Below, one piece after another: positions 17,007 through 57,515 of a DNA stretch of 64,000 nt. The stretch comes from a virus (lineage: Duplodnaviria > Caudoviricetes). Under the pieces are notes generated by a model. That model searched no databases. It saw nothing but the letters and a program-made list of their open reading frames with translations, and was not told the DNA's origin. The stretch is from the IMG/VR virus record IMGVR_UViG_3300025168_000078, positions 1,949 to 65,948 of that record, one strand, 5' to 3'. Numbering within the stretch: position 1 is the stretch's first letter; every line of letters begins with the position of its first letter. Position numbers and translations under genes: made by a program.

Positions 17007-17012
17007 GTATAA

Positions 17013-17362: not shown

Positions 17363-17366
17363 AATA

Positions 17367-17813
17367 TTAATCTAAATAGGGGTCTTGTAAGTTAGATGAT
17401 TTTAAATGAGTTGTTCTTCTATTTACTGTAACATTTTTAAAATGTTCTAGGACATCATCTTGTTCTTTTATTTTATTTTTTTGTTTTTTATTTATCACTT
17501 CTTGTTCACGTAATTGTTCTTTTAAAATTTTTAACTCTGAAATTAACTGTTCATTATCTACTTCCCTAGTTATTATTTTTTCTACTATAACTTCTTTTTC
17601 TACTATAACTTCTTTTATTACTTCTTTTATTACTTCCTTTTCTACGGGTACTTCTTGAATTTGTGATTTTGGTAGGAAGGGTGACACACCGTATTTATCT
17701 AAGGTTAGTCCGTCCTTGGTACATTTAACAATAAATTCATCGATTTCTTCAATGCCATTCAATTTACAGTATTCTGTAAATTCCTTTTTTAATTTATTAT
17801 TAATCTCAACCAT
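17367..17813 (-). CDS. hypothetical protein with KEVI/VEK repeats
   Basis: EKEVIKEVIKEVIVEKEVIVEK followed by coiled coil. Confidence 0.75.
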   Translation of the reverse strand: MVEINNKLKKEFTEYCKLNGIEEIDEFIVKCTKDGLTLDKYGVSPFLPKSQIQEVPVEKEVIKEVIKEVIVEKEVIVEKIITREVDNEQLISELKILKEQLREQEVINKKQKNKIKEQDDVLEHFKNVTVNRRTTHLKSSNLQDPYLD

Positions 17814-34900: not shown

Positions 34901-35971
34901 TAAACTATCTGTAAAGGCTAATAATTGTTCTCTACTTGAGAATCTCAGTGTTAAACATTTGTTGGCAGAAGAAAAGAGGTCGTTATCTCTAATTTCATTC
35001 ACCCAATTTAGTGGGTATACCTTTTTACCATTTTTCTTTACTCCTCTAGATGGTGTAATATTACCATCATTATCCACCTCTCTAGAAACATTATAAGGTA
35101 TTTCTATAATATTATTAGCACTTAAATTAAATGAAGATAAATTAACATTATTATAATTCTTGTTCTGTACCGCATAAACCTCACTACTTATTAATTGTAG
35201 ACTTTCAGTTTCCACATTTTGTTTTAATAACTGATTTTTATAATCATACAATACTTCTTGAGACGCTAAATCAGATTTAGTTAAACTTATATATACATTA
35301 TTTAATTTAATGTTTTGTGGTTTATTAATAATTGGACATACTGGTTTAATAGTTATAACATCACCCTCTATAATACGTGTTTCATCTATACCAATCTTAA
35401 ATCCTAGTGATTTGGTGTACTGTCCTCCAGTTTCCATATACATATCCATATCAAAAGATATGTTACTATTCTTATTTTTATTTATTCGAACTTTTGGTAG
35501 TATCATTTGTATCGCATGATTTTTACCGTTTATAGTTTTACCAAAATGTCTGATGGCTCCTTGCCCCTCGTTTATACTTCTACCCACACTAGCGTTAAAG
35601 TAATTTTTATGAGATAAAAAAGCTCCAAAGCTTCTATCTTTAATTTCTTCAAAACCAAACACACCATTACTATTTTTAAAGACCTCCAAAATGATATCAG
35701 TACTACCAATACTTAAATTCTGAAAATGATTTTCTAGGGTTAGACTACTAGAATCAAACATTAAAAATAATCTGGTGTTATTATTATCATCAACTTGTAA
35801 TACTGCGTCCACCGCTTTAGTATTATTGTAAGTTATGGTATAACATCTACTTTTATTACAATTTTTATTAACACTATAGTATTGTAAATTACCAGACACA
35901 AAGAATTCAAAAACTAGTTTGTCTGATAATTCTCTAAAATCTATTTTAGTTCTATATATTTTATTCTCCAT
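31934..35971 (-). CDS. large structural protein with Cys-rich and Pro/RGG low-complexity C-terminus
   Basis: 1345 aa; PPSPPPSPP, RGGPRGPRGGGG, YSCIEGICRLSDRGEYKTIEECEKRC. Confidence 0.75.
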   Translation of the reverse strand: MENKIYRTKIDFRELSDKLVFEFFVSGNLQYYSVNKNCNKSRCYTITYNNTKAVDAVLQVDDNNNTRLFLMFDSSSLTLENHFQNLSIGSTDIILEVFKNSNGVFGFEEIKDRSFGAFLSHKNYFNASVGRSINEGQGAIRHFGKTINGKNHAIQMILPKVRINKNKNSNISFDMDMYMETGGQYTKSLGFKIGIDETRIIEGDVITIKPVCPIINKPQNIKLNNVYISLTKSDLASQEVLYDYKNQLLKQNVETESLQLISSEVYAVQNKNYNNVNLSSFNLSANNIIEIPYNVSREVDNDGNITPSRGVKKNGKKVYPLNWVNEIRDNDLFSSANKCLTLRFSSREQLLAFTDSLKKQQIGNVEGYLVMNPNGIKEPVKRTYTKISQWIERTTIDQYNDVRFTYDTNLYINTITICPKKRSKLGSKYEGTQNSLYTNDKSYVLPGGGYYSGYFHSDPKIGFITGKDKKSTEQILLTPLYQYAPIAKNSSTDFCFTTFNNTVPQYSAFSATSTSENEPNKTYDLHISASSFSAETIIPISNIVRAQNLTLIGDLTENYAPYAFSEVYSENGGSVGLDNTDPDNYMTFSARSSGVYRFTYKAYLDIKYTDTKWCQYITNAFPSAFTTNYPTNDYEIKRLINTSIIKAGDGETTTVLQDTGFKYNPGVRYKIGDEYDVPDNTGVLDFSFITKIVKTSGTGATKTILKSFEVLRCEGDGSADDYLTLEVSPNDVTTSGANSCILSGVSSSTIFHKSIPVTVDTGFINLASGDTIQLLYEGSWSTTSKGGHYSLVGETNIDANLGSKLNFSGSPVESPWFRGIKLADEVVEKNLFFDQTKTSKPFKMTNSDIGGVVTLNGSLYLSDKRCGNIQPPTIDDTTFKNQMFIDSDGKDQKLIWNIKSNKITNKWQRLIESNTIKDYTLAPQSNGKMTTMKKDGVFCFYLPTYNNDDRATCIYKFPQLAQSYVIKNVFKNYFGGEVSNYIIVTTDCDFHMPCSTTQVLSAYDILHKTTPDKWKLTNDGSKISIGGKEVTILGGVTNRSKPAKVATQTDKCQYYCKCGQLLAEQLKLDPIYGITNELTDLEVSNCQGCIEKANNYCKSLHTNCTPVVLGDCKGQNAYLPQVDTGIITKTKGNVPEPIDKGNDSGTRPPSPPPSPPEGEGRGVDGEGRGGPRGPRGGGGPRGGGASMGGGAGFTSTQTTFEGCPCGDGSVIGRIPETYSIECCETPIVPPVGPPPPPPPVNMLYSCIEGICRLSDRGEYKTIEECEKRCTKVIVDEGKPVEPKKPEEVEDMVIKGYDEEKTIEKDGSIKPAEEEKGGICKKGFYWCQEFGRCIPDDITCGKIELK

Positions 35972-40058: not shown

Positions 40059-40280
40059 CTATATTTGTTTTTCTATTTTATAATACCCGTGTCCATGATA
40101 CTCTAATTCTCCCATGTTAGGGGTTTGTCCTAATCTTTGTGGTCTTTCAAATACACTAATAACACCTCTTTCAATAAATATATTTGACCTTGTTTCTGGA
40201 CGTGTACATACATTCATTAACACTTCTTCTTTTGTCAACGGTACTATACAACCAGTTACTTTTACAATATTAAATGCCAT
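40059..40280 (-). CDS. small structural protein (IFIERG...RLG motif)
   Basis: 73 aa with its own ATATTTATT motif at 40293-40301. Confidence 0.7.
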   Translation of the reverse strand: MAFNIVKVTGCIVPLTKEEVLMNVCTRPETRSNIFIERGVISVFERPQRLGQTPNMGELEYHGHGYYKIEKQI

Positions 40281-40330: not shown

Positions 40331-43300
40331 TTAACCTTCATTTAAATTTATTCTACTTGCTACGCACTTACACTGACTCCAACTCCATTGGTACCCCATT
40401 GCACACGATTCTGTTTGTATACAAGGAGCTTCTATTAACTCCATTGGCTCATGGTCATGGTCATGTGGGTCACTAGGCCCTCCAGTACAACAATGACCCC
40501 ATTGTTGACAAAATAAATAACAATCGTGGTTAATGTTTAGTGCCGCACCACTTGCACAGTGAACACAACAATTACTAAGTGGCATAGACTTACATGGGTC
40601 ATTTGGGTGACAGTTAACTTCTGTTTCATCTGGCTTACACTCACACGTTGGGTGGTTTTGGATAAGGTAAACTACGTTACCTGCACTATCCATACAGCAT
40701 TTTTTACAAATATCTACCGGTCCCCCCGTACAATCTTGCCAGTTACCTGAACTATCGTAACCACAATTTTTCCATGCATATCCTTGGGAATTTATAATTA
40801 AGACGTCATTGATAATTTGGCATGGTATAACACTTGTCCTAGACTCTTTTATCCCCAAAGGACCCACTACTGGGTTACTGTCCAATACACAACAATGACA
40901 ACACTGTTCATTTGCTGTGTTTGGTATACAGTCATTCTCAAAATAATTCCCATAGACCCCATTGTATGGTACGTAATTTATAGGTCCTGTTAAATCACTA
41001 GCTAAAGTAATGGCACATTCACCACACTCACCAACAGTAGGGTTACAAGGGTCACCATTATCATTAAACCCACAATCCATCCACATACCACCACCAATGT
41101 TTTGACCTATGCTTACTGATGGTTGATTCCCCAGTGCACATCTAGGTGGTGCACTCATTTTAGCTTGTAATGTAGCGTCTTGTGGGTCAGATGGGTCTAC
41201 CCACTTAACACAACAGTAACAACACTCATCATCTGGGTCCACCACACAATTATTTAGTGGGTAATTAAGTGGTGATGTCCAATTCCCTAAAAATGTAATT
41301 GGTGCGGTTAAATATAAACCTAGTGTAAGAGCACAATCCTCACAACCGATAAGTGGTGGTGAACAAGCTGCTACACACATTGGGTAACTCGCGTATTGTC
41401 CTAATCCCGTTCCTGGGTCATAGCAAGTTCCCTGGTCACAATCCCATGACTGTACCATAACATTTGGACTACAACAATTTTGTCCATAGTGGTTTTGGCA
41501 ATCACTAAGGTTAGCGTAACAACCATTACCTACTGTAAAACATGTTGGGTCTACTAAACATTCACATTCATCGTCACCCCAATCAAAACATCTATAATAT
41601 GTCTGTGGGCCACAACACGTATTTGGGTCCGTTTGACAGTCTAATAGTGATAAGCTACCACTTAGTGCTGTTGCGTCAAAAACACAATTACAAATCAATT
41701 GTTGTTGTGGGCTTAATGTTTGTTCACACACCCAAAACCCTGAAGGGGGTAAAAAACAACATGTAGTTTGACTTGCTTGACATGAAGGTAGGTTTGGAAA
41801 ACCAATAGTGGCCGCTGGGTCCCATACACAGTTACAATTACCATCACACACAAATGCTCCCGGTACTGGTGGTTCAGAACAACAGTTATTTGGGTAATCG
41901 TTTTCACAATCAAGTTTATTGTCATAAATCCCAGTTCCACTTGGTAGACATTCACATTCATCATCACCCCAATCAAAACATTCCCATTTTTGTAGTGGTT
42001 GGGTATAACAACAGAAATTAGGGTCGTTTTCACAACTAATAGCGTCAATAAATGAGTTCGGGGCAACAGCGGCTGCATTTTGTACACACGTACAATCGGA
42101 TATACAACATGGTTCTGCAATAAATCTATCACAATTAATAAATGAAAGTAACCCACCAGCTTCAGCGTTACACCCATTAGGCATTGAAGCAGTTGCTCCT
42201 AAAGAATTCCCGATAATATGAGCTATAACACTATAATCACATTGATACCCTTGGTACACCCCATAGGCTCCTACATTTAGTCCTGTATTTAACTGAACTG
42301 CTGGAGCTCCCAATGCAACCGCAGTATCAACATAATCTTTAAGTGTGTAGAACATTTGGACTGACCCGGCTATAGCGTCTAATATTAAATTATGCATACC
42401 ATTTCCTTTGACGTATTGATAGTCATTGTTTGGGGCTCTACAACATGTAGTTCCTTGTAACGCTGGAGGACATGCTAACGTCCATTTTGCCCATCTATAA
42501 GCACTAAAGTCCGCACTTATACCATATGACGCTATAATAGTTTCATAACTCCATATATCAGTAGGATAAAGGAAACTATTATTTGCCATTTCGTCGTTAA
42601 TATCTTGTGAGTCCCAACCTAAATTTACTAGATTCGAAGATTCGTTTGAATCCAGTATTGGGGTATTCACACAATGGTCAGTGTAATTACTAGGTGTAAA
42701 ACTTTGGACACATTCCCAAGGTACCGGAATATAACAACAAGTTGTAGTATCGTTTTCACACGCTGTTTGGTTTGGATACCCGGAAAGTGCTGCTGGGTCA
42801 AATATACAACTACAAACTGCTCCTACATCACATACATAATATCCTGTAGTAGCAGATTCACAACATGGGTGAGCACCAGGACCAAAGGAATCAATAACAT
42901 CTTGACAATCTTGTTCTGTATTATACTGACCTCCATTTCCAATCACACTGTTACAATAACACGGTGATGTTGTGCAAATACATAAATTAGGGTCTGCGTA
43001 GTCGTACCCACTAACATTTAGACTATTGTTAGGTATACCGTATGTTGCGGCCCATGTAGAGTCATTTCCAGATTCATTATTTGCTTGACCACAATGTATC
43101 TGAAAAGCTGCCCAATTTTCTGGGTGTGTGTTGGATAGGCTTAGTCCTAGTATCCCCAACATTGTTGCTTGGTTCACAAAATCAGCGTAGGAAGTTGTGG
43201 ATAGGCCTCCTCCAGGAATTGCTGCGTCCACTACTGGGTCAGCATTACAACTTTTTATCTTTAACCCAACACTCATCCATTGTCCACCATACGATGTATC

Positions 43301-46300
43301 ACAAGCACTATTACCAGCAGTTTCAACTCTAATTCCACTATGTGGTGTTGACTGTAGTCCGTTTGATGCGATGGCTATGTACTGCATGTACTCACTAAAG
43401 TTTGGTATCAACCCCCCAGCCCACGGTAAAGTAGGGTCTGTAGCACCATCCAAATATACGACTCCGTTACAACTGTTTGTTTGTGTACCTTCTATACAAT
43501 TCCAACTAATAACGTTAACTGGTCCGATACATCCAGTATCACATGGTATCCATATTAAATTTCCAGTACCACCACCATTTTCCCATACTGGTGTATTGGT
43601 TTGGTAGTCATTCCAATATGCTTCATACCAGTCGAATGGTGTTAAAGCTCCATGGGTAGGTTGTGTGTAACTATCAGTAACACACACGTAACAACATGTG
43701 GTACTACTATAGGAAGGTGGACCAAATGTTTGTGTAAATAACACTACGTCACCTAACTGGTATAGTGTGGTATTATCCCATATAGAACCTAGTGTAGATG
43801 GGGTAGGTGGTATTGACATAGTAGTATTGGATAAAATCCAATTGCTATTTATATTATCCCACGAATAGTAATTAACACTACCTATTTGTATACATTCATA
43901 ACAGTTACAGCAATTGTCTGTTGGTGAATTTGTATATGGTCCGTTATTAACACTAAACGTACACCCTGTCATACTATCAAATACTGGGGTACAGGTGGTT
44001 GTTTGATTTAAAAACACACATACACACCCATTTATACAATCACCACATAAAAAATTACATTCTGCTTGACATAAGGCCATAGAAGGGTATGGTCCAGAAG
44101 CAAATGTTAAAGGTGGATTGGTGGCTAGGTACCCAGTACAACCGTCTAAATCATCACAATAATATTCTGTGGTAGCTGCTGAACAAGGATAATAACCAAT
44201 TGTTGATGTTGTTGTTATCTGACAGTCTGAAGGGTTAAGTTGTGGGACGGCACCAGTACAACACAAAGTTTGCCCCCATTCCAACTCACAGAACCCACTA
44301 CCAGGTGGTGAACATTGACAGCAAAATACACATTGGTCTTCACAATCTTGAAGACTAGCAAACCCAGTACCCCCGTTAGTATAACTAACTTGACCTATCC
44401 CCCACGCTTGTGCCTGTACACTTGGAGACGCACCATTAATGTAGGATGATGATACACAAGCCGAAACTCCTGGTGTCCCATACAACCCATTTATCGCACC
44501 ATTTTGGTCACAAAAATAAGTAGTTGCTACACAACAATCACAATTATTAGTATGCATCCAACAATCAAACGCCGACACATATGTTGGTACTGGTGGTGAA
44601 GCTGGGTTGGAGAGAAATGTACAGGAGCATCCCGCAAAACTTAGTGGGTCTGGATTACAAGTCCACGTACACCACTCTTGACAGGCAGCTATACTAGTAA
44701 ATTGTCCTGGGTATGAACCGTGTCCAGGTGGTATAGGTATACACCCTAACCCCGCTGTATTTGACATTGGTTCACAATTAGAAGAATCATCACAATTAAA
44801 CGTCACACCTGAAGTATCACAACAATCTAAGGCTCCTGTTGGTGCTGCTATAGCTAAACAATCATTGAATGTAGTTAACGGAAATGTAGGTGCGAATAAC
44901 CCTGGTGGTACAGTAGGTGGGTAATTAGGATACATAATACTAGCTGTTGATAGTTGTAGTATGGTATCTGTTTGAGTTATCCAATCATATTGGGATACAC
45001 ATCCGGTTTCATCTATTCCTCCTATTATTTCCTCACAAAAACAACTTGCCCCACATTCATTATCACATGTCCCTATATCACCATAACAATTTTGTGATGT
45101 CTGAGTGAAGTTTACATCTATTACACATGAGGAGACAATACACCCAGCTGGGGTACACTCAAATGTATCACCGCTGTCACCACAACATGGTCCACAAGGT
45201 TCACCACATATAGGAGAAGGTACTGTACCTCCTGCTGTATGGTCACAAGCTAACCAACAATTAGGTGTTCCATCCGTTGCTGGACCATCATCTGGAGTAA
45301 AAACAGTGCAATCATAAACAATACCGGTACCAAGAGGGTCTGTTCCCGCTGTACCCACCCCTAACCAAGGACAAGCACAAAGATAACAACAAGGGTTGTC
45401 CATTGTACCTGGTGAATTAGGGTCCCAATAAGAAACTATATCACCTTCACCATAAAATAAATTATTATCCCAGTACCCTTTATCTGTAAATACGGGGTTA
45501 CCTGGGTCTGGTTCTAACCAATTACAAGCACACATACAACTATCAGCATCAGGACAACACTCATACTCGTCTGGTGTAGTATTGGGTATAACACATAGGT
45601 CTGTGGTACATTCAATTATATCACAATAAGGTAGTCCATACAGACCTTGTGTCACAATTGTATTCCCAGCAGCATTTGGTCCACCATGAGAACACATCTC
45701 AACATTACCAAGTGGTAAAAACCAGTAACATGGATAATATCCTGCTGGGAACATTTGGGTTGTACCTGTTCCAGCTATAAAGTCATCGTCATTACAAGCT
45801 GCGTGACAACATCTAGTTGCTTCACAACATTCGCCAGATGTAGCATACCCAGTAAATGGTGGTGGTTGAGAAAACGTTACCCCTAGTTGTGCCATAACAT
45901 AAGCACTCGGGTATTGTGTGCACCCTTCCGAGGTTGGTGTTCCATCGTCATTAAGAACACAATCCCAACCTACGTCACATTCACAATATTCGTCACATTG
46001 TGTGTAAGAGGTAAAGGTTGGTGGAACTCCGAATGGGTCTGGTGGCCAATAAGGACACCCTGGTTGACCATTATTGTTTGGGTCTGCGTACATTGAGCAA
46101 GGTGTTTGACTTGTACAATCACAAACTATACAAGTTGTTAAAGCGGTACAGTTTTGGTTACATAAATCTTCGTTAGGTACTGGCCACCCACAACCTAAAG
46201 TCCAACACGGAATACATGGTGAATTCATTGTCTCACAACTCCAACCACATTGAGTTATTCCAGCTGGATTAGCTGTTTGACAGGAATATTGGGTTGAGTA

Positions 46301-48844
46301 ACTACCCCCTATTGTAACTTCATAACACCCTTGTTCACAATCATAATTCCACCCTGTATACTCACAACATGTATCTGATATTAAGGGTACCCCGTGATTA
46401 CATGCCCATTGTGCTGTTGGTAGCCATGGACCATCCTCAAAATATAATTGGTGTATATTCGCTATATACTCTGCTTGACTAAAAGGTGGTGGTATTGGAG
46501 AAGGTAATGTATTTATCACATTAGTTATCAAACTCGTATATACTGGTATTCCTGTTAGAAAATCTTCAGCACAGGATATTAGACTACAACATTCTCCAGC
46601 CGGACCTGTAGCTGTGGTACATGACCAAGCTGGTGGTTCACACCAATCCATACAATCATCAGGGTTTTGAAAAACTGGTCCAGCATAAGGGTCGGCTGGG
46701 TCAAAATTAGTATATTGTGGGTTATTTGTTGTTATTTCTATACATCCATTACAACTATATTGTGTGATATTACCCAGTTCATCCCCACATAACCATCTAT
46801 CCGGATAACATTCACCGTCATTATAATCATCAATACAGTCACCATAAAATGGGTAACCATTTAATGTAAAAGGTCCTTGTGGTGTTGTTACCGTTAATGC
46901 TGAAGAATTTATAAAATCACAACTAGTAGTACTAACACTTGTTAAGTCCTGAGGACATATCCAAGAACCACAACCTATATAGTCCCATTCATTACTATTA
47001 GTAAATGCACTTGGGGAACCTAAATTACCTGTTGCTAAAGCTTGGTAACAATTACTATCTAACCCAGTAACATATTGTCCTGTAGTATAACTATTACCGT
47101 TCGCGTATACACCACCTAAAAGTGGGACACCCAAAGATATTTCTGGAGCAAGTTGTACTATAGTTGGGTCTTCACATGGTACTGTGGTACCTGGAGGGCA
47201 TACTAAACAAGACTGGTCACACGCTTCCCAAATATGTTTAGTTGGTAATCCATTATCGTACCAAACTCCTTGATATGTCTCTGTTGGTGGTACGAATGCC
47301 CATGGTGATGGTGAACTAGTTTGGTTTATATCTTCAACGGCCATATAACAACAACATTGTCCGTAGTTTTCATCAAAAATTATATCACCACGAACATAAT
47401 CTACACTGGAACTCCACACACCTTTCTGAAAAGATGGTCCTGACAAGATGCTCATCGGTACTCCAGTTATTCTATCAGTATATTCGTCTTTGGTCTCACA
47501 AAAAGCACAATCTTCTAATAAACATTTAAAACAATCGTACGCTCCAAAAGCTAAAGAATTTAACCCACAACTGGTTGCGTTATAGAGGGTTATCCCATTA
47601 GAAAAGTCATATAATTCTACTGTCGCAGCGTTATTCACACCAGAACTAATAGTATATGCTGTATAACCGTTAGTCGCTTGTGTTATTTGACCAATCATAG
47701 CTGGTACTATTTCATCCGTTACTGGGTTGACTACATCAGAACCTAACTCTGTTGGTACGAGTTCAAAATATCCAGGAGGTAAGAAAGGACTCCCTGATGG
47801 TGTTGAGGAATATGTTTGGAATAGACTTAGCATACTTTCTGTTACACCTGAAACATCGAAGCATGCAGTTGGACTTAACGCACTGTACTGCATGATATCG
47901 GTACCAGAATCCCATGGTGTTCCTGGTGATATCTCATGGAACCCACTTGAAATTTGTGTTCCTAGGTGGTTATAGATTGGATATTCTTGTGGTGGAATTC
48001 CCACAACCGGACCTAGTGCTTTTAATTGTGGGTAAGACATAAATGGAACCCAAATAGTTTGACTTACTGACATAGGACCCCAGGGTGTTTCTTGTGTTAT
48101 GGTAATTTTTTTCTGCATGGGTGTAGTATTGGTATACGTATGTGCAGTACTTAAATTAGGGTATTGTAGTATAGCTTGTTGAGCGCCCCCAAAACTAATA
48201 GTATATGGGGATTCTTGTAGTGACTTGTAGTAAGAAAAATCTGTAGTGTTATATACCCGTATTTTCATAGGGTTATTGGTGTCTGCGGTAACTATAAAAT
48301 TACTAAATATTTCTTTTTGACTTATGTTTCCGTCCCAAATAGAATAATGACCTATATCATTAAAATCTTGGGTTAGTTTTAATGTTATTTGACTTAAATT
48401 TTCCTCTAGTGGGTCGACACAAAAGCAACCTCCCACATTTTGAGTAAAGGTGTATTGGTTTGCGTTGGTTAGGTCTTTAAGATGGATTAGTTCGTCATAA
48501 CTCCCGTTTTGTATGAATGTACCACTAAATATTGCTTTAAGTCCCATAAACTTAACATACCCGAACTGACCTATATTTGTGCATTGAGCTAGATTTGTGG
48601 ATGTAAACTGGTCATTAAGTAACACACAAGGGTTAGATATGGAACACCCCCTTAACTCTTCTGGAAATGTGGTCACATCCCCACTCAAACTTAATTGTAC
48701 CTGACTAGTTGTGGAATTGTACATAGTAACTCCCGAACAGTTAGTACTGTAATTTATAGGCCAGTAGTCGGTGCCTCCCGAACAGGGGATACTCCAATAA
48801 CTGGGTGCATTTTTTCTTGTTATTCTAAACTTTTGTACTTCCAT
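40331..48844 (-). CDS. giant 2837-aa Cys/Pro-rich repeat protein, probable fibre/adhesin
   Basis: Uninterrupted ORF; many [WYF]xC...C...G.[YF].[ST]...C...C repeats; about six W/Y-x5-Y-xx-(GD)-type modules. Confidence 0.85.
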   Translation of the reverse strand: MEVQKFRITRKNAPSYWSIPCSGGTDYWPINYSTNCSGVTMYNSTTSQVQLSLSGDVTTFPEELRGCSISNPCVLLNDQFTSTNLAQCTNIGQFGYVKFMGLKAIFSGTFIQNGSYDELIHLKDLTNANQYTFTQNVGGCFCVDPLEENLSQITLKLTQDFNDIGHYSIWDGNISQKEIFSNFIVTADTNNPMKIRVYNTTDFSYYKSLQESPYTISFGGAQQAILQYPNLSTAHTYTNTTPMQKKITITQETPWGPMSVSQTIWVPFMSYPQLKALGPVVGIPPQEYPIYNHLGTQISSGFHEISPGTPWDSGTDIMQYSALSPTACFDVSGVTESMLSLFQTYSSTPSGSPFLPPGYFELVPTELGSDVVNPVTDEIVPAMIGQITQATNGYTAYTISSGVNNAATVELYDFSNGITLYNATSCGLNSLAFGAYDCFKCLLEDCAFCETKDEYTDRITGVPMSILSGPSFQKGVWSSSVDYVRGDIIFDENYGQCCCYMAVEDINQTSSPSPWAFVPPTETYQGVWYDNGLPTKHIWEACDQSCLVCPPGTTVPCEDPTIVQLAPEISLGVPLLGGVYANGNSYTTGQYVTGLDSNCYQALATGNLGSPSAFTNSNEWDYIGCGSWICPQDLTSVSTTSCDFINSSALTVTTPQGPFTLNGYPFYGDCIDDYNDGECYPDRWLCGDELGNITQYSCNGCIEITTNNPQYTNFDPADPYAGPVFQNPDDCMDWCEPPAWSCTTATGPAGECCSLISCAEDFLTGIPVYTSLITNVINTLPSPIPPPFSQAEYIANIHQLYFEDGPWLPTAQWACNHGVPLISDTCCEYTGWNYDCEQGCYEVTIGGSYSTQYSCQTANPAGITQCGWSCETMNSPCIPCWTLGCGWPVPNEDLCNQNCTALTTCIVCDCTSQTPCSMYADPNNNGQPGCPYWPPDPFGVPPTFTSYTQCDEYCECDVGWDCVLNDDGTPTSEGCTQYPSAYVMAQLGVTFSQPPPFTGYATSGECCEATRCCHAACNDDDFIAGTGTTQMFPAGYYPCYWFLPLGNVEMCSHGGPNAAGNTIVTQGLYGLPYCDIIECTTDLCVIPNTTPDEYECCPDADSCMCACNWLEPDPGNPVFTDKGYWDNNLFYGEGDIVSYWDPNSPGTMDNPCCYLCACPWLGVGTAGTDPLGTGIVYDCTVFTPDDGPATDGTPNCWLACDHTAGGTVPSPICGEPCGPCCGDSGDTFECTPAGCIVSSCVIDVNFTQTSQNCYGDIGTCDNECGASCFCEEIIGGIDETGCVSQYDWITQTDTILQLSTASIMYPNYPPTVPPGLFAPTFPLTTFNDCLAIAAPTGALDCCDTSGVTFNCDDSSNCEPMSNTAGLGCIPIPPGHGSYPGQFTSIAACQEWCTWTCNPDPLSFAGCSCTFLSNPASPPVPTYVSAFDCWMHTNNCDCCVATTYFCDQNGAINGLYGTPGVSACVSSSYINGASPSVQAQAWGIGQVSYTNGGTGFASLQDCEDQCVFCCQCSPPGSGFCELEWGQTLCCTGAVPQLNPSDCQITTTSTIGYYPCSAATTEYYCDDLDGCTGYLATNPPLTFASGPYPSMALCQAECNFLCGDCINGCVCVFLNQTTTCTPVFDSMTGCTFSVNNGPYTNSPTDNCCNCYECIQIGSVNYYSWDNINSNWILSNTTMSIPPTPSTLGSIWDNTTLYQLGDVVLFTQTFGPPSYSSTTCCYVCVTDSYTQPTHGALTPFDWYEAYWNDYQTNTPVWENGGGTGNLIWIPCDTGCIGPVNVISWNCIEGTQTNSCNGVVYLDGATDPTLPWAGGLIPNFSEYMQYIAIASNGLQSTPHSGIRVETAGNSACDTSYGGQWMSVGLKIKSCNADPVVDAAIPGGGLSTTSYADFVNQATMLGILGLSLSNTHPENWAAFQIHCGQANNESGNDSTWAATYGIPNNSLNVSGYDYADPNLCICTTSPCYCNSVIGNGGQYNTEQDCQDVIDSFGPGAHPCCESATTGYYVCDVGAVCSCIFDPAALSGYPNQTACENDTTTCCYIPVPWECVQSFTPSNYTDHCVNTPILDSNESSNLVNLGWDSQDINDEMANNSFLYPTDIWSYETIIASYGISADFSAYRWAKWTLACPPALQGTTCCRAPNNDYQYVKGNGMHNLILDAIAGSVQMFYTLKDYVDTAVALGAPAVQLNTGLNVGAYGVYQGYQCDYSVIAHIIGNSLGATASMPNGCNAEAGGLLSFINCDRFIAEPCCISDCTCVQNAAAVAPNSFIDAISCENDPNFCCYTQPLQKWECFDWGDDECECLPSGTGIYDNKLDCENDYPNNCCSEPPVPGAFVCDGNCNCVWDPAATIGFPNLPSCQASQTTCCFLPPSGFWVCEQTLSPQQQLICNCVFDATALSGSLSLLDCQTDPNTCCGPQTYYRCFDWGDDECECLVDPTCFTVGNGCYANLSDCQNHYGQNCCSPNVMVQSWDCDQGTCYDPGTGLGQYASYPMCVAACSPPLIGCEDCALTLGLYLTAPITFLGNWTSPLNYPLNNCVVDPDDECCYCCVKWVDPSDPQDATLQAKMSAPPRCALGNQPSVSIGQNIGGGMWMDCGFNDNGDPCNPTVGECGECAITLASDLTGPINYVPYNGVYGNYFENDCIPNTANEQCCHCCVLDSNPVVGPLGIKESRTSVIPCQIINDVLIINSQGYAWKNCGYDSSGNWQDCTGGPVDICKKCCMDSAGNVVYLIQNHPTCECKPDETEVNCHPNDPCKSMPLSNCCVHCASGAALNINHDCYLFCQQWGHCCTGGPSDPHDHDHEPMELIEAPCIQTESCAMGYQWSWSQCKCVASRINLNEG
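41558..41981. repeat. 34-bp near-exact direct repeat (encodes CFDWGDDECEC), 390-bp spacing
   Basis: acattcacattcatc(g/a)tcaccccaatcaaaacat at 41558 and 41948. Confidence 0.9.
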
Positions 48845-48847: not shown

Positions 48848-49723
48848 TTAAGGGTTTATATATTCATAAAATCTTATAGGGTAACTGGTTGGCGGGTTGT
48901 CTTCCCTACCAACTATCTGACCTAAGACTCCGGTATTATAATTATTAATGTTAAAGGTTCTAACCTCATAATAATATTTAGGTCCTACTAACGCAGGATT
49001 TATATTAAGTTTAACTTGATAATAAAACCAATTCCTAAAATCGTATGCTTCTGGTAATGGGGTTGGTGGGCTTTCATTTATCATTTTTATTACTTTACCA
49101 GTTTTAGCGTTAAAAAATTTACAAGACATATAAAAAGTATCCATATCGTATATATCTCTTTTTTTCAACCATTGTATGTAATAGTTTTCATTTATCCCTT
49201 TATTTGGGCCTAAAATCATTGTAGGACTGTAAACACCATATACTGGTGGGATTATACCTTGTGCAATTTGGCTATAGTATTCATATGGGTCTTCCTCTGG
49301 TATTACTTGTCTTTCTACCTTTATACAATTATTTAAAGGCATAATAACAGAAAACATTAATTTCTGTTCTTCCCTTACTGGGGAATCGTAATAATCAAGT
49401 TTAAAAAAGCTTTTATTAACAGCACTACTCTTTTTTGCTAACTCTTTTTGTGTATACCCCAATAAAGTAAAGTCATCATTATAGGTTTGGGAATTATAGT
49501 CACGGAACTGGAATTTGTAATATATTTTATTGTCGGGTGGAAAAAGGTGTGAATATCTGGTTGTTTCATAATCTATAATTGGATTTATATTATCCTGTAA
49601 TTCCACTTCATCGTATATCTCTAAAAGTTGCTCTCTTCCTACTTCATCAAAATTTTGACTTATAGGAATGGTAATATTCTTATCACCTAAAGAAGCTTTT
49701 ATCTGTATTCTATTGACAGTCAT
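48848..49723 (-). CDS. probable baseplate/structural protein
   Basis: SFFKLDYYDS and FYMSCKFFNAKTG; operon context. Confidence 0.7.
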   Translation of the reverse strand: MTVNRIQIKASLGDKNITIPISQNFDEVGREQLLEIYDEVELQDNINPIIDYETTRYSHLFPPDNKIYYKFQFRDYNSQTYNDDFTLLGYTQKELAKKSSAVNKSFFKLDYYDSPVREEQKLMFSVIMPLNNCIKVERQVIPEEDPYEYYSQIAQGIIPPVYGVYSPTMILGPNKGINENYYIQWLKKRDIYDMDTFYMSCKFFNAKTGKVIKMINESPPTPLPEAYDFRNWFYYQVKLNINPALVGPKYYYEVRTFNINNYNTGVLGQIVGREDNPPTSYPIRFYEYINP

Positions 49724-51488
49724 CTACGTAATCGTTTATTATAGTTATTCCAGAATATAGAGTTCCATCTGGATAGGAAAATATAGGCTCTATATTAAAA
49801 TTTAAATCTAAATGTGGGTAGTGTGCATCATTTAAATATGGATAATCAACACCATGAACTTCGTCTTCGTAATACCCTATAGGTAAAATAGCTCTCCACC
49901 TAAACACACTTTCTGATAAAGAATATGTTGCATATTGAGGTGATGTAAATAGTGTATCGTTAGAACTTATACTGGTAGAAAATTTTCTAATAGGTATTCT
50001 ATGGTGTGGTTCATACCTGTATATAGACTTTATAAAATCATTAGGTGTGTCGGGTTGTCGCATAACGTCCTTATTAAATTTAAGTGAGTGTCCTATTTCT
50101 GAAATTATAGTTTCTTTTAATTCGTATGGGTTATATTCTACAAACGCTCCTCTAAATGTTGTACCACTAGGTGGTAAGTTTACTGCGTTATTTGCAGTTT
50201 GTGTTAAATTTACCCAATTAGTATTATTATCTATAAATGGGTCTACATACCCATTTTTTCTAAAATTCCAATCCCACCCGTACCCAGCTGGGGATTGGTG
50301 GCTCTGATAATTCCACATTAGATTTTTATTACTAGGTAGTATAGTTAGATATAAGTCCCCTATTGGTCTATTTAAATTATCAAAATAGTCGGTCCTATCA
50401 ATATCTAAATTAACATTCCATAAATAAGATTTAAATTCTTCTGTTATTACTGTTTTTTCCCCGTACCCTGGTGGTGTCTTTTTTTGTTTAAAGACTCTTC
50501 CTTTCCTATTAAATATCCCAGACTCAAACCCTGTCCTATCTAAAGAATAATCATTAGGGTTTGTTATTAATTTATGTTTATGGGTATAATAGTTAGATGT
50601 AAACTCTATAGGGTTCCCTAAATTTATCATCCTTTTAAAGGTACCTACTGGGTTTGGTGGGAGTGTAGAACTATCTAAACTCCTTAGGTATATGTTTATT
50701 ATGTATTTTTCAGTGCCGGCAATTTCACTACCTAGGGAATCTACCCTAAAAGTGTTTTGTATGGATGTGTAGGTAGCACCTTGTAAATCATATGATGTTG
50801 TTAAATATGTTGTTAGGTTTGTTGCGTTTGGGAAAGTACTTAATGTGGTCCCACTCTGTAATACAATATACTCACCAACTTCTAAACCATGTGGTACTGG
50901 ACTTGTAAATTGTGCAGCGTCTCTACCATCAATACTTATGATTTCTAGTTGGAATGGGATTCCATCTCCAGCTACAAAATTTAAGCCTTCTAGGTTGTTG
51001 GTGTCTGGATTAAAATAGAAAGTCATAGATTCATTTTCTTCTGAACCATGTATGTAGGATATGTAAGTTAACCAATTGTCTTGATATGCGGTTAAGGAAT
51101 TATATACACTAGTGTTGGATGACCCATAATTCTTTTGGGGAATAAAGTTAAATGTGTCAGCTGGTGGTAACCCTGTGCAGGGTCCCCCATTGGGACATCC
51201 TAAATAAGCAGGTAAAAAAAACATGCTATTTAAAAATTCACTATCATCAGTATCCCCACTTATAACATTATTATACAAAATAGAAACATTGCCATACATC
51301 CTATATATATCACAACTTTCTCTCTCTAGTTCAAATTGGGTTTGTAAGTTTAGTACTAGATTTCTATCACCTTCTATCATATTTCTTACATCAGATGATA
51401 GAAATGGTTGTAACCCTACATTTTTATCTTGTGCTCCAGCAAACCTGGAACTACCCTTAACAATTCTTATATTTTTTCTATTACTCAT
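49710..51488 (-). CDS. probable baseplate/structural protein
   Basis: 592 aa; DNLNRP..LYLT and YPYLNDAHYP; operon context. Confidence 0.7.
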   Translation of the reverse strand: MSNRKNIRIVKGSSRFAGAQDKNVGLQPFLSSDVRNMIEGDRNLVLNLQTQFELERESCDIYRMYGNVSILYNNVISGDTDDSEFLNSMFFLPAYLGCPNGGPCTGLPPADTFNFIPQKNYGSSNTSVYNSLTAYQDNWLTYISYIHGSEENESMTFYFNPDTNNLEGLNFVAGDGIPFQLEIISIDGRDAAQFTSPVPHGLEVGEYIVLQSGTTLSTFPNATNLTTYLTTSYDLQGATYTSIQNTFRVDSLGSEIAGTEKYIINIYLRSLDSSTLPPNPVGTFKRMINLGNPIEFTSNYYTHKHKLITNPNDYSLDRTGFESGIFNRKGRVFKQKKTPPGYGEKTVITEEFKSYLWNVNLDIDRTDYFDNLNRPIGDLYLTILPSNKNLMWNYQSHQSPAGYGWDWNFRKNGYVDPFIDNNTNWVNLTQTANNAVNLPPSGTTFRGAFVEYNPYELKETIISEIGHSLKFNKDVMRQPDTPNDFIKSIYRYEPHHRIPIRKFSTSISSNDTLFTSPQYATYSLSESVFRWRAILPIGYYEDEVHGVDYPYLNDAHYPHLDLNFNIEPIFSYPDGTLYSGITIINDYVDDCQ

Positions 51489-54400
51489 TATATTACACCA
51501 TCCGCTAATTCTTCATCTATATATTTTCTTACAAATATATTAAACGATGTATTCCCAGGTCTTAAACCAAAATAAAAGAATAAGGGTTGTGAGAAAACCA
51601 TTTGTTTATCACTCATACTGGTCATTACTGGATAGGAATTGGGGTGGGTAAACCCTAATTCTTGACCTAAATCGTTTTGGAAAAACCCAGCACTTTGTAT
51701 ATACCCACCCGCGCCTGGACCTCCTGATGGCCATGAAAGATTTGGTACGTGAATGTCACTTTGAAAACTGTAAAATAGTGATGGTACTGTTGACATACCA
51801 GGGGCATTCATTGAGTGTCTATGTACGTACTCACCTTTAGTGTACATCCAATCGTTAAAATCACTACCAAAGCCAGGGGCTAGTGGATTAGCGTTATTAC
51901 TAGAGGTTTCCCAAGCATAAAATGGTACTCGTTGTGTGGCCGCTGACAACTCTAAGGTAAGACATTCTATTAGATTTTCTGCGTCCATTATAGTTTCTGT
52001 TTGGCCTGTAAATAAAAGTGGTTCCCACTGAATTGGGTAATATTTATTACAGGATGCGTTTACTGCGTGGTCTACCCAAGTGGTTATATCAAAATTAGGT
52101 TCTGGGTATTCTAAACCACCTAACGCATCAGTATCATCATTTGGTAGCATGGTGTTATTATCATAGTCACATTTACACTGTGTATTACCTAAATTAGCTT
52201 CGTACCCATAGACCCCCAACATACAATTTTGCATTAATGCTTGTCCAACATCACCACCAACAGACATTTCTGGTCTTGGGTAAAAGGTACTGATTGAGCT
52301 ACTATCGTTTAGTAATTTTACGTTATATATGTCCATAACTAGGTCTGTTATGTCTTGGAATGTGGTACTCCCTATTTGGTCGGTAACTGAACAGTCTTCG
52401 GCAAAGTTAGTATCTAAACATATTTGTTGTATACATTGATTTCTAGAACCCATGTCAACCATAGTTGTTGGAAATAGTATGTGTCGGTCCATGTCTCCAT
52501 CTGCATGATTGTTGGATGACCCGTTACCATTAAACGACCACCATGGTGAATATACACCATCTGTATCACCAATAAACTGTCCGTCGGTTTTTGAAGGTCC
52601 TATAGTCCTAAAAGGTGTAGACCTATAAAAGAAAGTATTATCGTCTGGATGTAGGTATGTTAATTTTTTACACCACCTTGATTTTGTAGCGTATGTACCT
52701 TCTGGGTATGCTGGGTTAGACTCATCAAATTCCAACTTAGCATTAAACTGAAACATATATAAAAATCCACTTACCCAATTATTTTCCCAATAGTAATTCA
52801 TAACACCATTACAAAGTGCTGACGCCATTTTTTCCCTTCTAGCCCATTGACGAAAAACAACCATATTTAAATTTTCAAATAGACAAGCTGGGTTAAAACA
52901 TATAACCTTAATATAACATCCACCACCAGCAATACCAGCTGTTCCATCTGTTTCTGGTTGTGGTGCACATTGTCCGTCATAATACACAGCTGAATTATAA
53001 CCATAGTTGTCATTACAACACACATAAGTATCGTCGGTAGGTTCACAACAATCATGTTGGAAGTTTCCACCAATTGTAGTGTTTAGTGAACCGTTTCCTA
53101 CTGGACATGGTGAACCATTATTTGTACCCCCAGTTGTTGGTGGGTCTCCAGGACATGGGAAATTATTAGCTAGGTCAATCATTTGTGCGTTAGTGTTAGG
53201 TCTACACAAACATTTTTCACATTCTGGATACTTGGTTTGTCTAAGTTTAAATAAAATGAATCCTAGTGGGATACCAAAATACTCACATTTTTCTCCACAA
53301 CCAAAACCTGTTAAATTAATTTGACTACATAATTTAGGTGGTGTTGGTATATAGTTTGACATATTTATGATTGTAACACCCCAAAGACTAATATTTATAT
53401 CCCAAATAGCACACCACATTTTACATATAGCCCAAATGATAATTAATACCGGTGCCAGCATTGTACCAATTAGTACGGCTAGTATACTTACCACTAAATC
53501 TATAATCATAAAAAGCATACCTAAAAAACCTATTATAAAAGTATTTAAGAAAATAATAAATTTAACTTGTCTTACAGCACTATTTATGGGGAAAAACATA
53601 GCTGAAGTGGAGCATTGTTGTTCTTGTTCAGGCAATATATTTTTTATCCCAATAAATTGTCTTCTACCACCATGTTTTACATGGTCATGAAATTGGGAAA
53701 ATGTATACACACGATTAAATGTCATTTCATAAAAATAGTCATCCGCTCCTGGTAATAAATTTCTTTGTGCCCAAGGATGGTAGTCTGCATAATCAGTAGA
53801 GAAAGCGTACGACCTTCTATCTATACCTGGCCAATCACCGTCATTATTGTCTTGGGTTGTAAACTCGTGTATATTTGGTACCAAGTAGGAACCTACCCGT
53901 CTAAATCTTGCACCACCAGTTGCTTTTTCTGGTCTAACCCTAAACCTATATCTTGCTCTTGTTGGTACACCAACATCTGGGTCACCAGATTTAACTAGGT
54001 CTCCAAATTCATCTGTAATTAAATGGTCTAAATTCATTGGCATATGAACAAGAAAAGCTCCATAACTATCTATAACTCTACCACCATTAGATAGGTAGTA
54101 TCTTTCTAGTATTGGTACTGTTCCACCTATTGGGTTTGCGTAATCCCAACTTGATGTGCCGGCGTCCCAAGCTGGAAAAGCGTTTGGGTTTTCTTCAAGG
54201 AATGGGGTATATCTAATAGCATCAATCATTCCTGGTTTGGTTATTAAACTACACAATTCCCCCATACTAGCTCTTGGTCTACAGTTCATATTAACCGAAT
54301 CCTTGTCTGTATCTTGACCCACACTACCCATAAACACAGCGTTAGGTTGTAATTTAAATCCTGAGTTACCTAAATCAAAGTCTACCCTTGTAATTGAGGC

Positions 54401-55096: not shown

Positions 55097-55213
55097 ATCT
55101 ATTTTTTACTGATTATTCTTTTAAATTTAAAGTTAAAAGTGTTATGGCATATATGAAATAAATAGTTCTTCTACCAAAAGTAAAAGTAACGTTGGTTACT
55201 AAAATAGTAAAGT

Positions 55214-57055: not shown

Positions 57056-57056
57056 A

Positions 57057-57515
57057 TTATAAATTTATTATTACAAAATCTTTAGTCCTAAAAACCCCAT
57101 CACCAGCACTATAATCTATTCTAACTCGAATTGCGTACTCACTCTCTGATTCACCTATAAAATTAAAACTATTTATGTCTGTTATAGGGTCAGTTGTCTC
57201 CTCTTCTTCTAACCTGACGTCATCAGCTGTTTTAACCTCAACATTATTTACCACTAAATTAGGTATGTATTTACTTACCGCTTCTCTAATTTCACTGTCT
57301 ATAGCTATTTTAGTTGTTGTATCCATTTGTTCAAAAACATACTTAACCAAGTTAGTACCAAAATCTGGTAAAAAGTACCGTGACCCTTTTACCGTCAATA
57401 TAAGGTGTATTAAATTAGACCTAACTTCACTATCAGTAGTTTTGTTTAACCCTAGGAAAAATCCTTGGTCACTATCATTAAATGGAAATTTTATACCGTA
57501 TCTTTGGTTAGGCAT
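57057..57515 (-). CDS. baseplate gp25/GPW family protein
   Basis: GIKFPF, NLIHLILTVKGSRYFLPDFGTNL. Confidence 0.9.
   Translation of the reverse strand: MPNQRYGIKFPFNDSDQGFFLGLNKTTDSEVRSNLIHLILTVKGSRYFLPDFGTNLVKYVFEQMDTTTKIAIDSEIREAVSKYIPNLVVNNVEVKTADDVRLEEEETTDPITDINSFNFIGESESEYAIRVRIDYSAGDGVFRTKDFVIINL

Follow-up and report, generated by a model that had tools for sequence, protein, structure and literature searches.

The gene under study lies on the minus strand of a 64,000-nucleotide stretch of DNA (positions 1,949 to 65,948 of the IMG/VR virus record IMGVR_UViG_3300025168_000078; Duplodnaviria, Caudoviricetes), which is called the window here. It is a single ATG-started open reading frame (ORF) without internal stop (translation table 11) and encodes a protein of 2837 amino acids (aa), the giant protein, with 240 cysteines (8.46%), 224 prolines (7.9%), only 49 lysines and arginines together (1.7%) and 287 aspartates and glutamates; threonine, glycine, serine and asparagine are also plentiful. 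The computed mass is ~305.5 kDa, the pI is 4.05 and the net charge is ~-238. Residues 1-400 contain 8 cysteines, and from about aa 430 onward the density is 5-15 cysteines per 100 aa, broken by two cysteine-poor inserts (2 cysteines in aa 1801-1900 and 3 in aa 2101-2200). The 46 remaining ORFs of the window contain 0-5.4% cysteine, at most 2.9% in all but two and mostly less than 2%. A preliminary description of the locus had reported an ORF of this length that turns cysteine-rich after ~430 residues, and our results confirm it. The three repeat strings that it quoted are present at aa 2467-2494, 1561-1596 and 2003-2037, and the self-similarity exceeds chance both by hidden Markov model (HMM) and by masked self-BLAST, which gives 16 pairs at E <= 0.01 (top 1.5e-15). 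It had also reported that a signal peptide is lacking, in agreement with the hydrophilic N-terminus: no hydrophobic N-terminus or membrane segment was found in the giant protein (mean Kyte-Doolittle value of -0.6 over 30 aa; maximum of 1.51 in a 19-residue window). The amino-acid composition is typical of extracellular proteins.

A word-indexed search across 5.8 billion proteins retrieved 31 giant homologues of 1811-2990 aa with 7.4-8.7% cysteine. All are metagenomic and carry neither a Pfam domain nor a name, and one of them (P0002) is 82% identical to the giant protein. Their contigs reach 286 kb and come from sources including Tara, ENA, JGI and Logan, and the clade is widespread in marine metagenomes. 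The alignment of 30 giants has a mean column identity of 31% and 217 invariant columns, 120 of which are cysteine. At least 90% conservation among 30 homologues is seen for 150 of the 240 cysteines, namely all 9 in the N-terminal region (aa 1-440), 114 of the 132 in the trunk (aa 441-1800) and 27 of the 99 in the distal third (aa 1801-2837). This conservation across the giants indicates strong purifying selection on the cysteines themselves. Conservation and alignment occupancy are high in aa 1-1800 and low beyond, and the identity to P0002 decreases from 87-97% in aa 1-700 to 44-61% in aa 2501-2800. An N-terminally anchored host-recognition protein is expected to show such a gradient, so the gradient fits a host-recognition role. 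The gene is real and strongly conserved.

The giant protein belongs to no family in the collections searched. Pfam gave none for the whole protein (E <= 1) or for ten excised segments, PHROGs and NCBIfam gave none, and profiles built for the module, the N-terminus, the trunk and the tip found nothing below E 0.29 among PDB sequences. The sub-threshold Pfam matches DUF4240, Reprolysin_4 and DUF5417 (E 0.016-0.14) were regarded as chance. Searching 50,697 phage records with the whole protein by tblastn gave no match at 1e-5, a search in which the low-complexity filter may mask module matches. A literature search over the main texts of an available set of papers found no description of a cysteine-rich giant phage tail protein or of such a module. 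In these collections the cysteine modules therefore match no well-characterised phage domain, an outcome in line with the preliminary description.

Position among baseplate genes

The preliminary description had placed the gene in a baseplate operon, and PHROG matches to wedge proteins upstream on the same strand agree with this. The gp25-like ORF (57057..57515, minus strand) matches phrog_261 (5e-16) and also phrog_43, and the gp6-like ORF (55214..57055, minus strand) matches phrog_219 (7.7e-18); both are annotated as baseplate wedge subunit. ORFs of 1202, 592 and 291 aa follow on the same strand and then the giant gene, and the gap between the 291-aa ORF and the giant gene is 3 bases. The order of gp25-like gene, gp6-like gene, three ORFs and giant gene is kept in 46 related loci. 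An alignment-derived pattern scan of IMG/VR identified 46 loci, while a pattern from the single protein matched none there. The 291-aa gene is directly upstream in 46 of the 46 loci, and the 306-aa gene is downstream in all 30 loci whose sequence extends to that point. Within the near clade (L002-L038), neighbouring genes encode proteins with mostly 50-76% identity to those of the window, and the giant protein is 32-49% identical. Nine loci from a more distant clade have a shorter orthologue (873-1254 aa, 3.4-6.4% cysteine), and the N-terminal region is also present in eleven further proteins of 829-2138 aa.

A 73-aa ORF follows on the 3' side of the giant gene, and then come ORFs of 306, 1051, 1345, 1182 and 802 aa, for which neither Pfam nor PHROGs gave a family. 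The 73-aa ORF is 60-83% identical in the 30 of 30 loci that also show the 306-aa gene. At the distant-clade locus L043, the shorter orthologue is followed by a second cysteine-rich ORF of 1064 aa (12794..15988), and a homologue of the 73-aa ORF forms the C-terminus of that second ORF. The 73-aa ORF is probably part of the same assembly as the giant protein and resembles a conserved docking or adaptor element, occurring either fused or free. Read-through from the giant gene was rejected as its origin, since it lies in another frame with several stops between. Between the giant gene and its downstream neighbour, no terminator-like site was found. An ORF of 258 aa (25165..25941, minus strand), situated amid the large putative fibre genes, has the second highest cysteine content of the window, 5.4%, and a match to dockerin type I, an EF-hand-like calcium-binding domain (PF00404, E 9.5e-8).

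The record from which the window is taken has 65,948 bases and a CheckV completeness of 20%, and related records of 210 and 232 kb are 66 and 72% complete. The completeness of the 66-kb record together with these related records points to a jumbo genome of ~320 kb, and we read the source as an uncultured jumbo myophage of marine origin. In the phage collection, the closest records are an uncultured 484-kb phage, Microcystis phage Mel-JY01 and Flavobacterium phage immuto, with gp6-like proteins only ~27% identical to that of the window. In the annotations of Mel-JY01 and immuto, baseplate and fibre genes follow gp6, and the largest coding sequences have ~1265-1340 aa. Further upstream in the window are a ribonucleotide reductase, a DnaB-like helicase, an exonuclease and a UvsX-like gene, and no tRNA was found in the 64 kb. 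A DegT/DnrJ/EryC1-type aminotransferase gene (15801..17024, minus strand) adjoins a family 2 glycosyltransferase gene (14802..15800, minus strand), forming a sugar-modification pair, and an ORF of 124 aa (6186..6560, minus strand) has a hydrophobic, signal-peptide-like start (MKKLVLILLLITPVWAF...) and no Pfam match.

Predicted folds and cysteine modules along the protein

The AlphaFold2 model of aa 1-440 (33 homologues) is mostly beta, with a mean predicted local distance difference test (pLDDT) score of 65.7; the first 26 aa score below 50 and are unmodelled. Foldseek matched this model to four PKD structures with prob 1.00 (TMt 0.54-0.68, E 0.007-0.033), the best superposed of which was 4l9d_A (TMt 0.68, root-mean-square deviation (rmsd) 3.1 over 87 columns), and to a Bacteroides surface glycan-binding protein (E 6.9e-4). 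A VIA-align search of the whole PDB also placed 4l9d_A on model residues 177-273 (Z 6.7, rmsd 2.9, 80 aa), alongside Ig and FN3 folds at Z 6-7.6, a range that VIA-align rates as middling. Pfam gave no PKD match for this region, and in our own reading the sequence has a W-G-D...H-x-Y...I-T-I-T look that may be PKD-like. The predicted complex of aa 1-440 with the upstream 291-aa protein received a score of 0.02 and a mark of 0.32, values that count neither for nor against binding. A Q-[DN]-F-D motif had suggested a domain common to the N-termini of the giant protein and of the 291-aa and 1202-aa proteins next to it, an idea that was dropped after hhalign comparison (probability 0.5%, E 0.11-0.12). 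The giant protein and the 291-, 592- and 1202-aa proteins (starts at 48844, 49723, 51488 and 55096, minus strand) share an N-terminal basic, strand-like motif, M-x3-[RK]-[IF]-x-[IV]-[KR] or near, which may be a shared docking strand; profiles of the longer N-terminal regions showed no significant similarity.

The trunk was modelled over aa 441-1000 (31 homologues), with a mean pLDDT of 72.0 and 344 of the 560 residues at 70 or above. The model shows recurrent short hairpins with a helix after each. Its best Foldseek matches are the tail fibres of phage 7-7-1 (E 2.4e-4, prob 0.90), followed by the receptor-binding complex of phage Milano and then by the tandem binding modules of a Vibrio chitin oligosaccharide deacetylase. 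VIA-align traces the likeness to a small domain at aa 577-625 of the predicted model, which superposes on the carbohydrate-binding module (CBM) of the Vibrio deacetylase with Z 5.9 and an rmsd of 1.2 Å over 46 aa (24-32% identity), and on the binding domain of chitinase B with Z 5.0-5.2. Fibres of cyanophage A-1(L), Milano, 7-7-1, Pam1 and Pa193 contain this small domain as well (Z 4.0-4.6). This CBM5/12-like match was repeated in an all-PDB search independent of Foldseek, and the matches in BFVD include phage proteins that carry the labels CBM5/12, ChiA1-BD or chitin-binding type 3. G589, C599, W620 and Y622 are invariant in the domain, and the aromatic residues Y586 and Y600 are conserved. 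Because this fold is already common in phage fibres, this part of the trunk is a known phage domain.

The best-modelled part of the trunk, the beta domain with the W..Y..GD.V motif, has no clear fold match of its own in VIA-align. Related copies lie at aa 1125-1157 and 1671-1773 (self-BLAST of 459-540 against 1671-1755, E 1.2e-4); the beta domain, these copies and those in the tip units are assigned to the CBM5/12 type by motif and self-similarity only. In the all-PDB VIA-align search with the trunk model, 49 of 48,161 representative chains reached Z >= 2, and 19 of the 48 matches listed are Kunitz domains (Z 2.1-3.4, 36-43 aligned residues), including APPI (Z 3.4), bikunin, TFPI and boophilin; BPTI scored Z 3.3 in a separate VIA-align search. 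The aligned stretches, model residues 241-297 and 461-516 among them, place the matched units at aa 681-737, 901-956 and 627-677. Among the matches listed, those outside the CBM and fibre group are mostly Kunitz domains, the only structural likeness of the hairpin-plus-helix units. Pfam gave no Kunitz match, and the modules carry 4 or 6 cysteines in another order and without the canonical spacing. In the model, the Kunitz resemblance is one of shape and is not an established membership.

The distal third contains eight cysteine modules, mainly of a ~40-residue type with the consensus ar-x-C-x(n)-C-x-C-[VI]-x-D-P-..-G-x-Y-x-x-L-x-D-C-x-x-D-x(n)-C-C. Its HMM finds 10 copies in the giant protein and 239 in 44 family sequences, and among the 121 ORFs that reach 60 aa in the window, both strands counted, it matches the giant protein only (E 2.2e-23; others E 1.9 or worse). 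The six cysteines are invariant in 65 module copies from the window and 16 loci, at a mean identity of 27%, and the commonest number of cysteines per module is six (93 of 207 unique copies) or four. No match to the 6-Cys module was found in Pfam, PHROGs, NCBIfam or PDB sequences; the module profile gave only weak PDB sequence matches, among them the Kunitz-type ornithodorin (E 1.1). The small cysteine-stapled domains of the preliminary description are supported as conserved units, both by the six invariant cysteines per module and by the 120 invariant cysteines of the family.

A search of 1.84 billion representative proteins with the 6-Cys profile gave 27 matches at E <= 0.001, several of which are family members or fragments. 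The non-family matches have a 4-Cys form that ends in [FY]-x-[ST]-x3-C-x3-C and lies beside GH16, beside transmembrane segments or in long tandem arrays. The consensus of the 4-Cys form is [YW]-N-C-x2-G-x-C-x-D-P-G-x-G-x-G-x-Y-x-T-L-x2-C-x3-C, which the copy at aa 2467-2494 of the giant protein fits. A word-indexed search with one 4-Cys array retrieved 64 proteins, none of them named by its source, in which Pfam gave sub-threshold EGF_TEN (PF25024) over the arrays in three and DUF285 'surface protein', LamG-like and thaumatin domains elsewhere. An HMM built from 27 outside 4-Cys modules of six unrelated metagenomic proteins matches the giant protein (E 9.4e-5) and the 1345-aa ORF (E 1.4e-4) and no other of the 121 window ORFs. 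We conclude that the 6-Cys module is an elaboration, specific to the clade, of a more widespread and unannotated 4-Cys module. The neighbouring 1345-aa ORF (31934..35971) contains one 4-Cys module at aa 1244-1269 (32165..32242, minus strand). P0074 is a metagenomic protein with many 4-Cys modules; its N-terminal part, outside the modules, matches Cellulophaga phage proteins that are annotated as structural components of the virion.

The two cysteine-poor inserts of the distal third gave no Pfam family above threshold, and ESM Atlas gave no usable match for aa 1780-2250 or for aa 1940-2500. Beyond the modules is a duplicated tip unit (2494-2567 against 2600-2674, E 4e-7 by self-BLAST) with the motif G-C-[DE]-[DE]-C...W..Y..N-[DE]-C-V-x-D-P-x-D-x-C-C-Y-C-C-V. 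In 16 homologues the tip unit has 24 invariant columns, 17 of them cysteine, with variable linkers between. The tip is the most divergent stretch relative to P0002 and has no relative among PDB sequences. The terminal motif of the C-terminal end recurs in several homologues. Another motif, G-C-x-D-P-x-A-x-N-[YF]...D-D-G-x-C-x-Y, is repeated in the second cysteine-rich ORF of L043 (12794..15988) and near the C-terminus of its 1170-aa neighbour (16925..20437), and it also occurs in the metagenomic protein P0096; a pattern search of twelve window ORFs did not find it. The features are collected in Table 1.

Table 1. Coordinates in the window of the giant gene, its parts and adjoining genes
Feature	Position	Strand	Remarks
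Whole gene	40331..48844	-	2837 aa; 31 giant homologues; 46 syntenic IMG/VR loci
N-terminal region, aa 1-440	47525..48844	-	Cysteine-poor, conserved, mostly beta; presumed baseplate anchor
Ig-like/PKD-like beta-sandwich, aa ~150-280	48005..48397	-	Foldseek and VIA-align on predicted model
Cysteine-rich trunk, aa 441-1800	43445..47524	-	Conserved; occupancy 0.5-0.9
Beta domain, aa ~470-545, motif W..Y..GD.V....CCCY.AV	47210..47437	-	Best-modelled trunk part, pLDDT 85-90
CBM5/12-like (chitin-binding type 3-like) domain, aa 577-625	46970..47116	-	VIA-align on predicted model, BFVD
Kunitz-like hairpin-plus-helix cysteine unit, aa 681-737	46634..46804	-	Predicted fold
Second Kunitz-like unit, aa 901-956	45977..46144	-	Predicted fold
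Variable distal third, aa 1801-2837	40334..43444	-	Occupancy 0.09-0.52
First cysteine-poor globular insert, aa 1786-1952	42989..43489	-	2-3 cysteines per 100 aa
Two 6-Cys modules, aa 1954-2038	42731..42985	-	Module HMM i-E 3.6e-4, 1.9e-10
Second cysteine-poor insert, aa 2040-2250	42095..42727	-	2-3 cysteines per 100 aa
Six tandem modules, aa 2237-2504 (five 6-Cys, one 4-Cys at aa 2467-2494)	41333..42136	-	Self-BLAST, module HMM
Duplicated tip unit, aa 2496-2712	40709..41359	-	Presumed specificity determinant
C-terminal end, aa 2713-2837	40334..40708	-	Cysteine-rich; acidic His/Asp linker; terminal C-x5-C-x2-G-x2-W-x4-C-x-C
73-aa ORF, absent from the ORF list (below length cut-off)	40062..40280	-	Between giant gene and 306-aa gene
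Upstream module genes	48848..57515	-	PHROG wedge matches; order kept in related loci, neighbours mostly 50-76% identical in near clade

A proposed stapled appendage and its alternatives

With good confidence we assign the giant protein to the virion or baseplate, and we lean, by a small margin over an even chance, towards a baseplate-anchored, disulfide-stapled modular adhesin or receptor-binding appendage. The preliminary description had called it a virion appendage, and a place in the tail or baseplate is very probable from the synteny in 46 loci, the conserved N-terminus and trunk, the hypervariable tip and the matches of the trunk to fibres. The virion presence, disulfides and glycan binding that we infer would work together as follows. 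The cysteine-poor aa 1-440, with Ig- or PKD-like beta-sandwiches, would hold the protein on the baseplate. The trunk would be a string of small CBM5/12-like beta domains and of hairpin-plus-helix units of 30-55 residues that resemble a Kunitz core, each small unit being locked by two or three intradomain disulfides, and these disulfides would produce a long, acidic and rigid stalk that resists protease and shear. In a chain of roughly fifty small domains, the N-terminus and trunk would supply attachment and reach, and the distal third, with its two cysteine-poor inserts, eight 6- or 4-Cys modules and duplicated, CCYCC-containing tip, would carry the fastest-changing part, which would set host specificity, probably by binding surface polysaccharide. 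The CBM5/12-like domains may join the tip units in binding the host surface polysaccharide. Folding of the protein's domains would take place in the cytoplasm, and covalent stapling would follow on oxidation, either once lysis has begun and the protein meets oxic sea water or at a late stage of infection. The oligomeric state and the time of oxidation are likewise what we infer: the bead-like make-up of Ig, CBM and mini-domains would suit a single chain as well as a homotrimeric fibre.

Several observations weigh against this reading. The N-terminal model matches only generic Ig, PKD and FN3 folds and, in Foldseek and VIA-align, no known baseplate protein structure. Pfam CBM_5_12 is unmatched, even with the excised aa 560-640 at E <= 10, and the CBM5/12 fold plays purely structural roles in other fibres. 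Glycan binding, which the preliminary description had proposed, accordingly stands in part, with one clear CBM5/12-like fold match in the predicted model and no Pfam match; we regard it as possible, at slightly less than an even chance. The Kunitz matches in the model are weak, with Z at most 3.4, and VIA-align cautions that middling Z values occur often. The 52 variable cysteine columns of the trunk form 30 co-varying groups, including 16 singletons as well as ten local pairs and two groups of four, and this pairwise analysis is confounded by relatedness. Only 18 of the 30 homologues have an even total of cysteines, alignment leaves some module copies with 3 or 5 of them, and the C-x2-C, CCYCC and acidic His/Asp linkers of the tip could be metal sites. 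All relatives are metagenomic, and the nearest cultured phages are only ~27% identical in the gp6-like protein. In addition, ~120 disulfides would have to form correctly. In five records of the phage group (20-72% complete), Erv1/ALR (PF04777) was found in none, as it was in none of 14 control genomes, and DsbA (PF01323) was also found in none, compared with 9 of 14 control genomes; thioredoxin is present in two of the five records and a glutaredoxin-like protein in all five, and these proteins are normally reductants or partners of ribonucleotide reductase.

The preliminary description had suggested oxidation after lysis or with phage help, and the second of these finds no gene-level support in the five records, given the lack of Erv1/ALR and DsbA matches. 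An Erv1/ALR-type oxidase is the virus-encoded cytoplasmic disulfide pathway of poxviruses and other large DNA viruses. E. coli DnaJ reportedly has disulfide-isomerase-like activity, which is a lead only. The window encodes a full-length DnaJ (696..1718, minus strand) with a J domain, a CXXCXGXG zinc-finger domain and a C-terminal domain, and a glutaredoxin-like protein of 125 aa (10678..11055, minus strand) with the active-site motif CPDC. DnaJ is found in four of the five records; it is missing from the 232-kb record, whose giant orthologue has 873 aa and 3.4% cysteine, a single case in an incomplete genome. A scan of genome contigs with the phage DnaJ, made to infer the host, gave matches that span most of its length at 24-33% identity, the majority in Patescibacteria and other metagenome-assembled genomes; being a pattern scan, it is not a best-hit search.

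Whether the small units are held by disulfides or by metal bears directly on this problem, and disulfides are the rather likelier of the two. Kunitz is a metal-free fold with three disulfides, so the likeness of the hairpin-plus-helix units to Kunitz domains, their sole structural look-alikes, favours disulfides; the module ending [FY]-x-[ST]-x3-C-x3-C is also seen in the aligned stretch of the Kunitz-type ornithodorin. The prevailing six or four cysteines per module, the ten of 30 co-varying groups of trunk cysteine columns that are local pairs (a count confounded by relatedness) and the extracellular type of composition point the same way. An appendage whose modules are stapled by zinc, or by a cysteine-rich cluster as in metallothioneins, would nevertheless fit assembly in the reducing cytoplasm, where a protein without signal peptide is made, and it would agree with the failure to find an Erv1/ALR or DsbA oxidase gene in the five records. 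Dense CC, CxC and CCYCC motifs, the C-x2-C that opens each tip unit and the His/Asp-rich acidic linkers near the tip could also serve metal, and the pLDDT of the trunk does not discriminate because AlphaFold is confident on metal domains without their metal. The spacing of the cysteines argues the other way. C-x2-C occurs 16 times in the giant protein, no more often than in 1000 shuffles (18.1 expected), CC shows a mild excess (31 against 22, z 2.2), no CPxC or CxxCG knuckles occur, and paired C-x2-C of fixed spacing, of the zinc-ribbon or zinc-knuckle type, is not seen. The loops between cysteines vary widely, by 2-20 residues for C1-C2 and 5-13 for C4-C5, unlike fixed metal knuckles; six invariant cysteines per module are not a multiple of four; and aa 431-2837 contain only 26 histidines. 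The related 4-Cys modules, moreover, adjoin GH16, DUF285 'surface protein', LamG-like and thaumatin-like domains. We therefore consider metal stapling quite unlikely.

The giant protein might instead be a structural part of the baseplate or its network that recognises no receptor, an enlarged analogue of the T4-type wedge or periphery or a 'garland' as in Milano and 7-7-1. By gene order, the gene would then occupy the slot that comes after gp6, gp7, gp8 and gp9, and the real fibres would be the downstream ORFs of 1051, 1345, 1182 and 802 aa. The gene does lie inside the run of wedge genes rather than at its end, two thirds of the protein's length are conserved across the family, four more large ORFs of unknown family follow, and in the two reference phages the function of the disulfide networks is to stabilise the particle mechanically, according to the available text of the reports (PMC10811340, PMC12796354). 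Nevertheless, the distal third is hypervariable and the tip is the fastest-changing part between close relatives, which is the usual mark of host recognition, and a CBM5/12-like domain is present, as in fibres. Foldseek and VIA-align gave no match of either model to T4-type gp7 or gp10, which is weak evidence. A purely structural role thus appears unlikely. It is very improbable that the giant protein is no virion protein at all, but a product that is set free at lysis and binds polysaccharide or particles, or else a scaffold or decoy inside the cell. Neither PHROGs nor Pfam annotates it as structural, and no family member is known from proteomics; however, the synteny is strict, the genes are tightly spaced on one strand with the baseplate genes, down to the 3-base gap, the folds match phage fibres, the neighbouring 1345-aa ORF of the same gene module also carries a 4-Cys module, and the N-terminal part of P0074 matches virion proteins.

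If the cysteines of the giant protein are disulfide-bonded, they pose a sharp folding problem, since more than 100 specific bonds would have to form in a protein made in a reducing cytoplasm without a recognisable oxidase. The modules of 28-50 residues would be very small and probably very stable binding scaffolds that tolerate large loop variation. Two unannotated domain families would be defined, the 6-Cys family nearly private to the clade and the 4-Cys family found in metagenomic virus-like proteins, and once both were named, annotation could reach thousands of residues in marine viromes that now count as 'hypothetical'. A bolder extension, which we consider doubtful, is that a whole marine jumbo-phage clade builds a ~300-kDa host-recognition appendage of about fifty mini-domains with ~120 disulfides, an architecture in the style of the extracellular matrix made in a bacterial cytoplasm. 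It would imply an undescribed oxidative folding route, which might be phage-driven oxidation of the cytoplasm, help from the phage's own DnaJ and glutaredoxin-like proteins or self-templated oxidation after lysis, and an unnamed, virus-borne, Kunitz-like family with 4 or 6 cysteines.

Comparison with known systems

The preliminary description had assumed that phage fibres are normally poor in cysteine, a rule with known exceptions. In the available text of the respective reports, the fibres of Pam3 are disulfide-linked to the wedge and are released by dithiothreitol (PMC9942802), a disulfide network of sheath and baseplate in Milano blocks contraction until it is reduced (PMC10811340), and the capsid proteins of 7-7-1 contain 2.58% cysteine and are disulfide-bonded, in a proteome with 1.45% cysteine that is called unusual compared with 0.9% in T4 (PMC12796354). 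As far as these texts describe them, the three phages are contractile-tailed and assembled in the cytoplasm, with a baseplate, fibres, sheath or capsid held by disulfides (PMC10811340, PMC12796354, PMC9942802), much as is proposed for the present one. They differ, again as far as described there, in having few cysteines per protein and mainly inter-subunit links, whereas in the giant protein autonomous small domains, dozens of them, hold the 240 cysteines. With this number of cysteines, 120 of them invariant across relatives that are only 32-42% identical, it is on another scale than the known disulfide-using phages. The likeness of the giant protein to the 7-7-1 fibre and the receptor-binding protein of Milano is limited to the shared CBM5/12-like domain.

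The 'moraphages' are aquatic jumbo phages of up to 307 kb whose core genes include gp25, gp6 and glutaredoxin and often DnaJ, with Bacteroidota as predicted hosts, as described in the main text of the report (PMC12619734). Jumbo size and the gp25 and gp6 genes are shared with the present phage, and the window holds a full DnaJ gene and a glutaredoxin-like gene. The moraphages are mainly from freshwater, in contrast to the marine clade here, and the likeness is one by description, the main text being without the word 'cysteine' (PMC12619734).

At the domain level, aa 577-625 superposes in the predicted model on the CBM5/12 domains of chitinases, of the Vibrio deacetylase and of many phage fibres, with the aromatic and glycine positions kept. 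Unlike these, the copies in the giant protein add conserved cysteines (C599, or CCC and CCYCC) and have no Pfam match. The hairpin-plus-helix units share with Kunitz/BPTI domains (PF00014) a small beta-hairpin followed by a C-terminal helix with C-x3-C, preceded by [FY]-x-[ST]-x3. They differ in having 28-50 residues and 4 or 6 cysteines in the order ar-x-C, C(-x-C) and then C-x3-C or C...CC, and nothing in the giant protein suggests protease inhibition. The proteins outside the family that carry the 4-Cys module are unlike the giant protein, with 224-1045 aa and tandem, near-identical 4-Cys copies beside GH16, DUF285, LamG-like and thaumatin domains, and the 6-Cys form, marked by C-x-C and a CC at its end, is hardly seen outside the giant family. 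The giant protein also resembles a generic tail fibre or receptor-binding protein in being encoded in a tail and baseplate gene module and in having a conserved proximal and a variable distal part. Taken together, it is most likely a modular receptor-binding or baseplate protein of a disulfide-using phage. Disulfide-bonded virions are not new; what is new is a cysteine density of 8.46% over 2837 residues, the autonomous mini-domains and the two unannotated module families.

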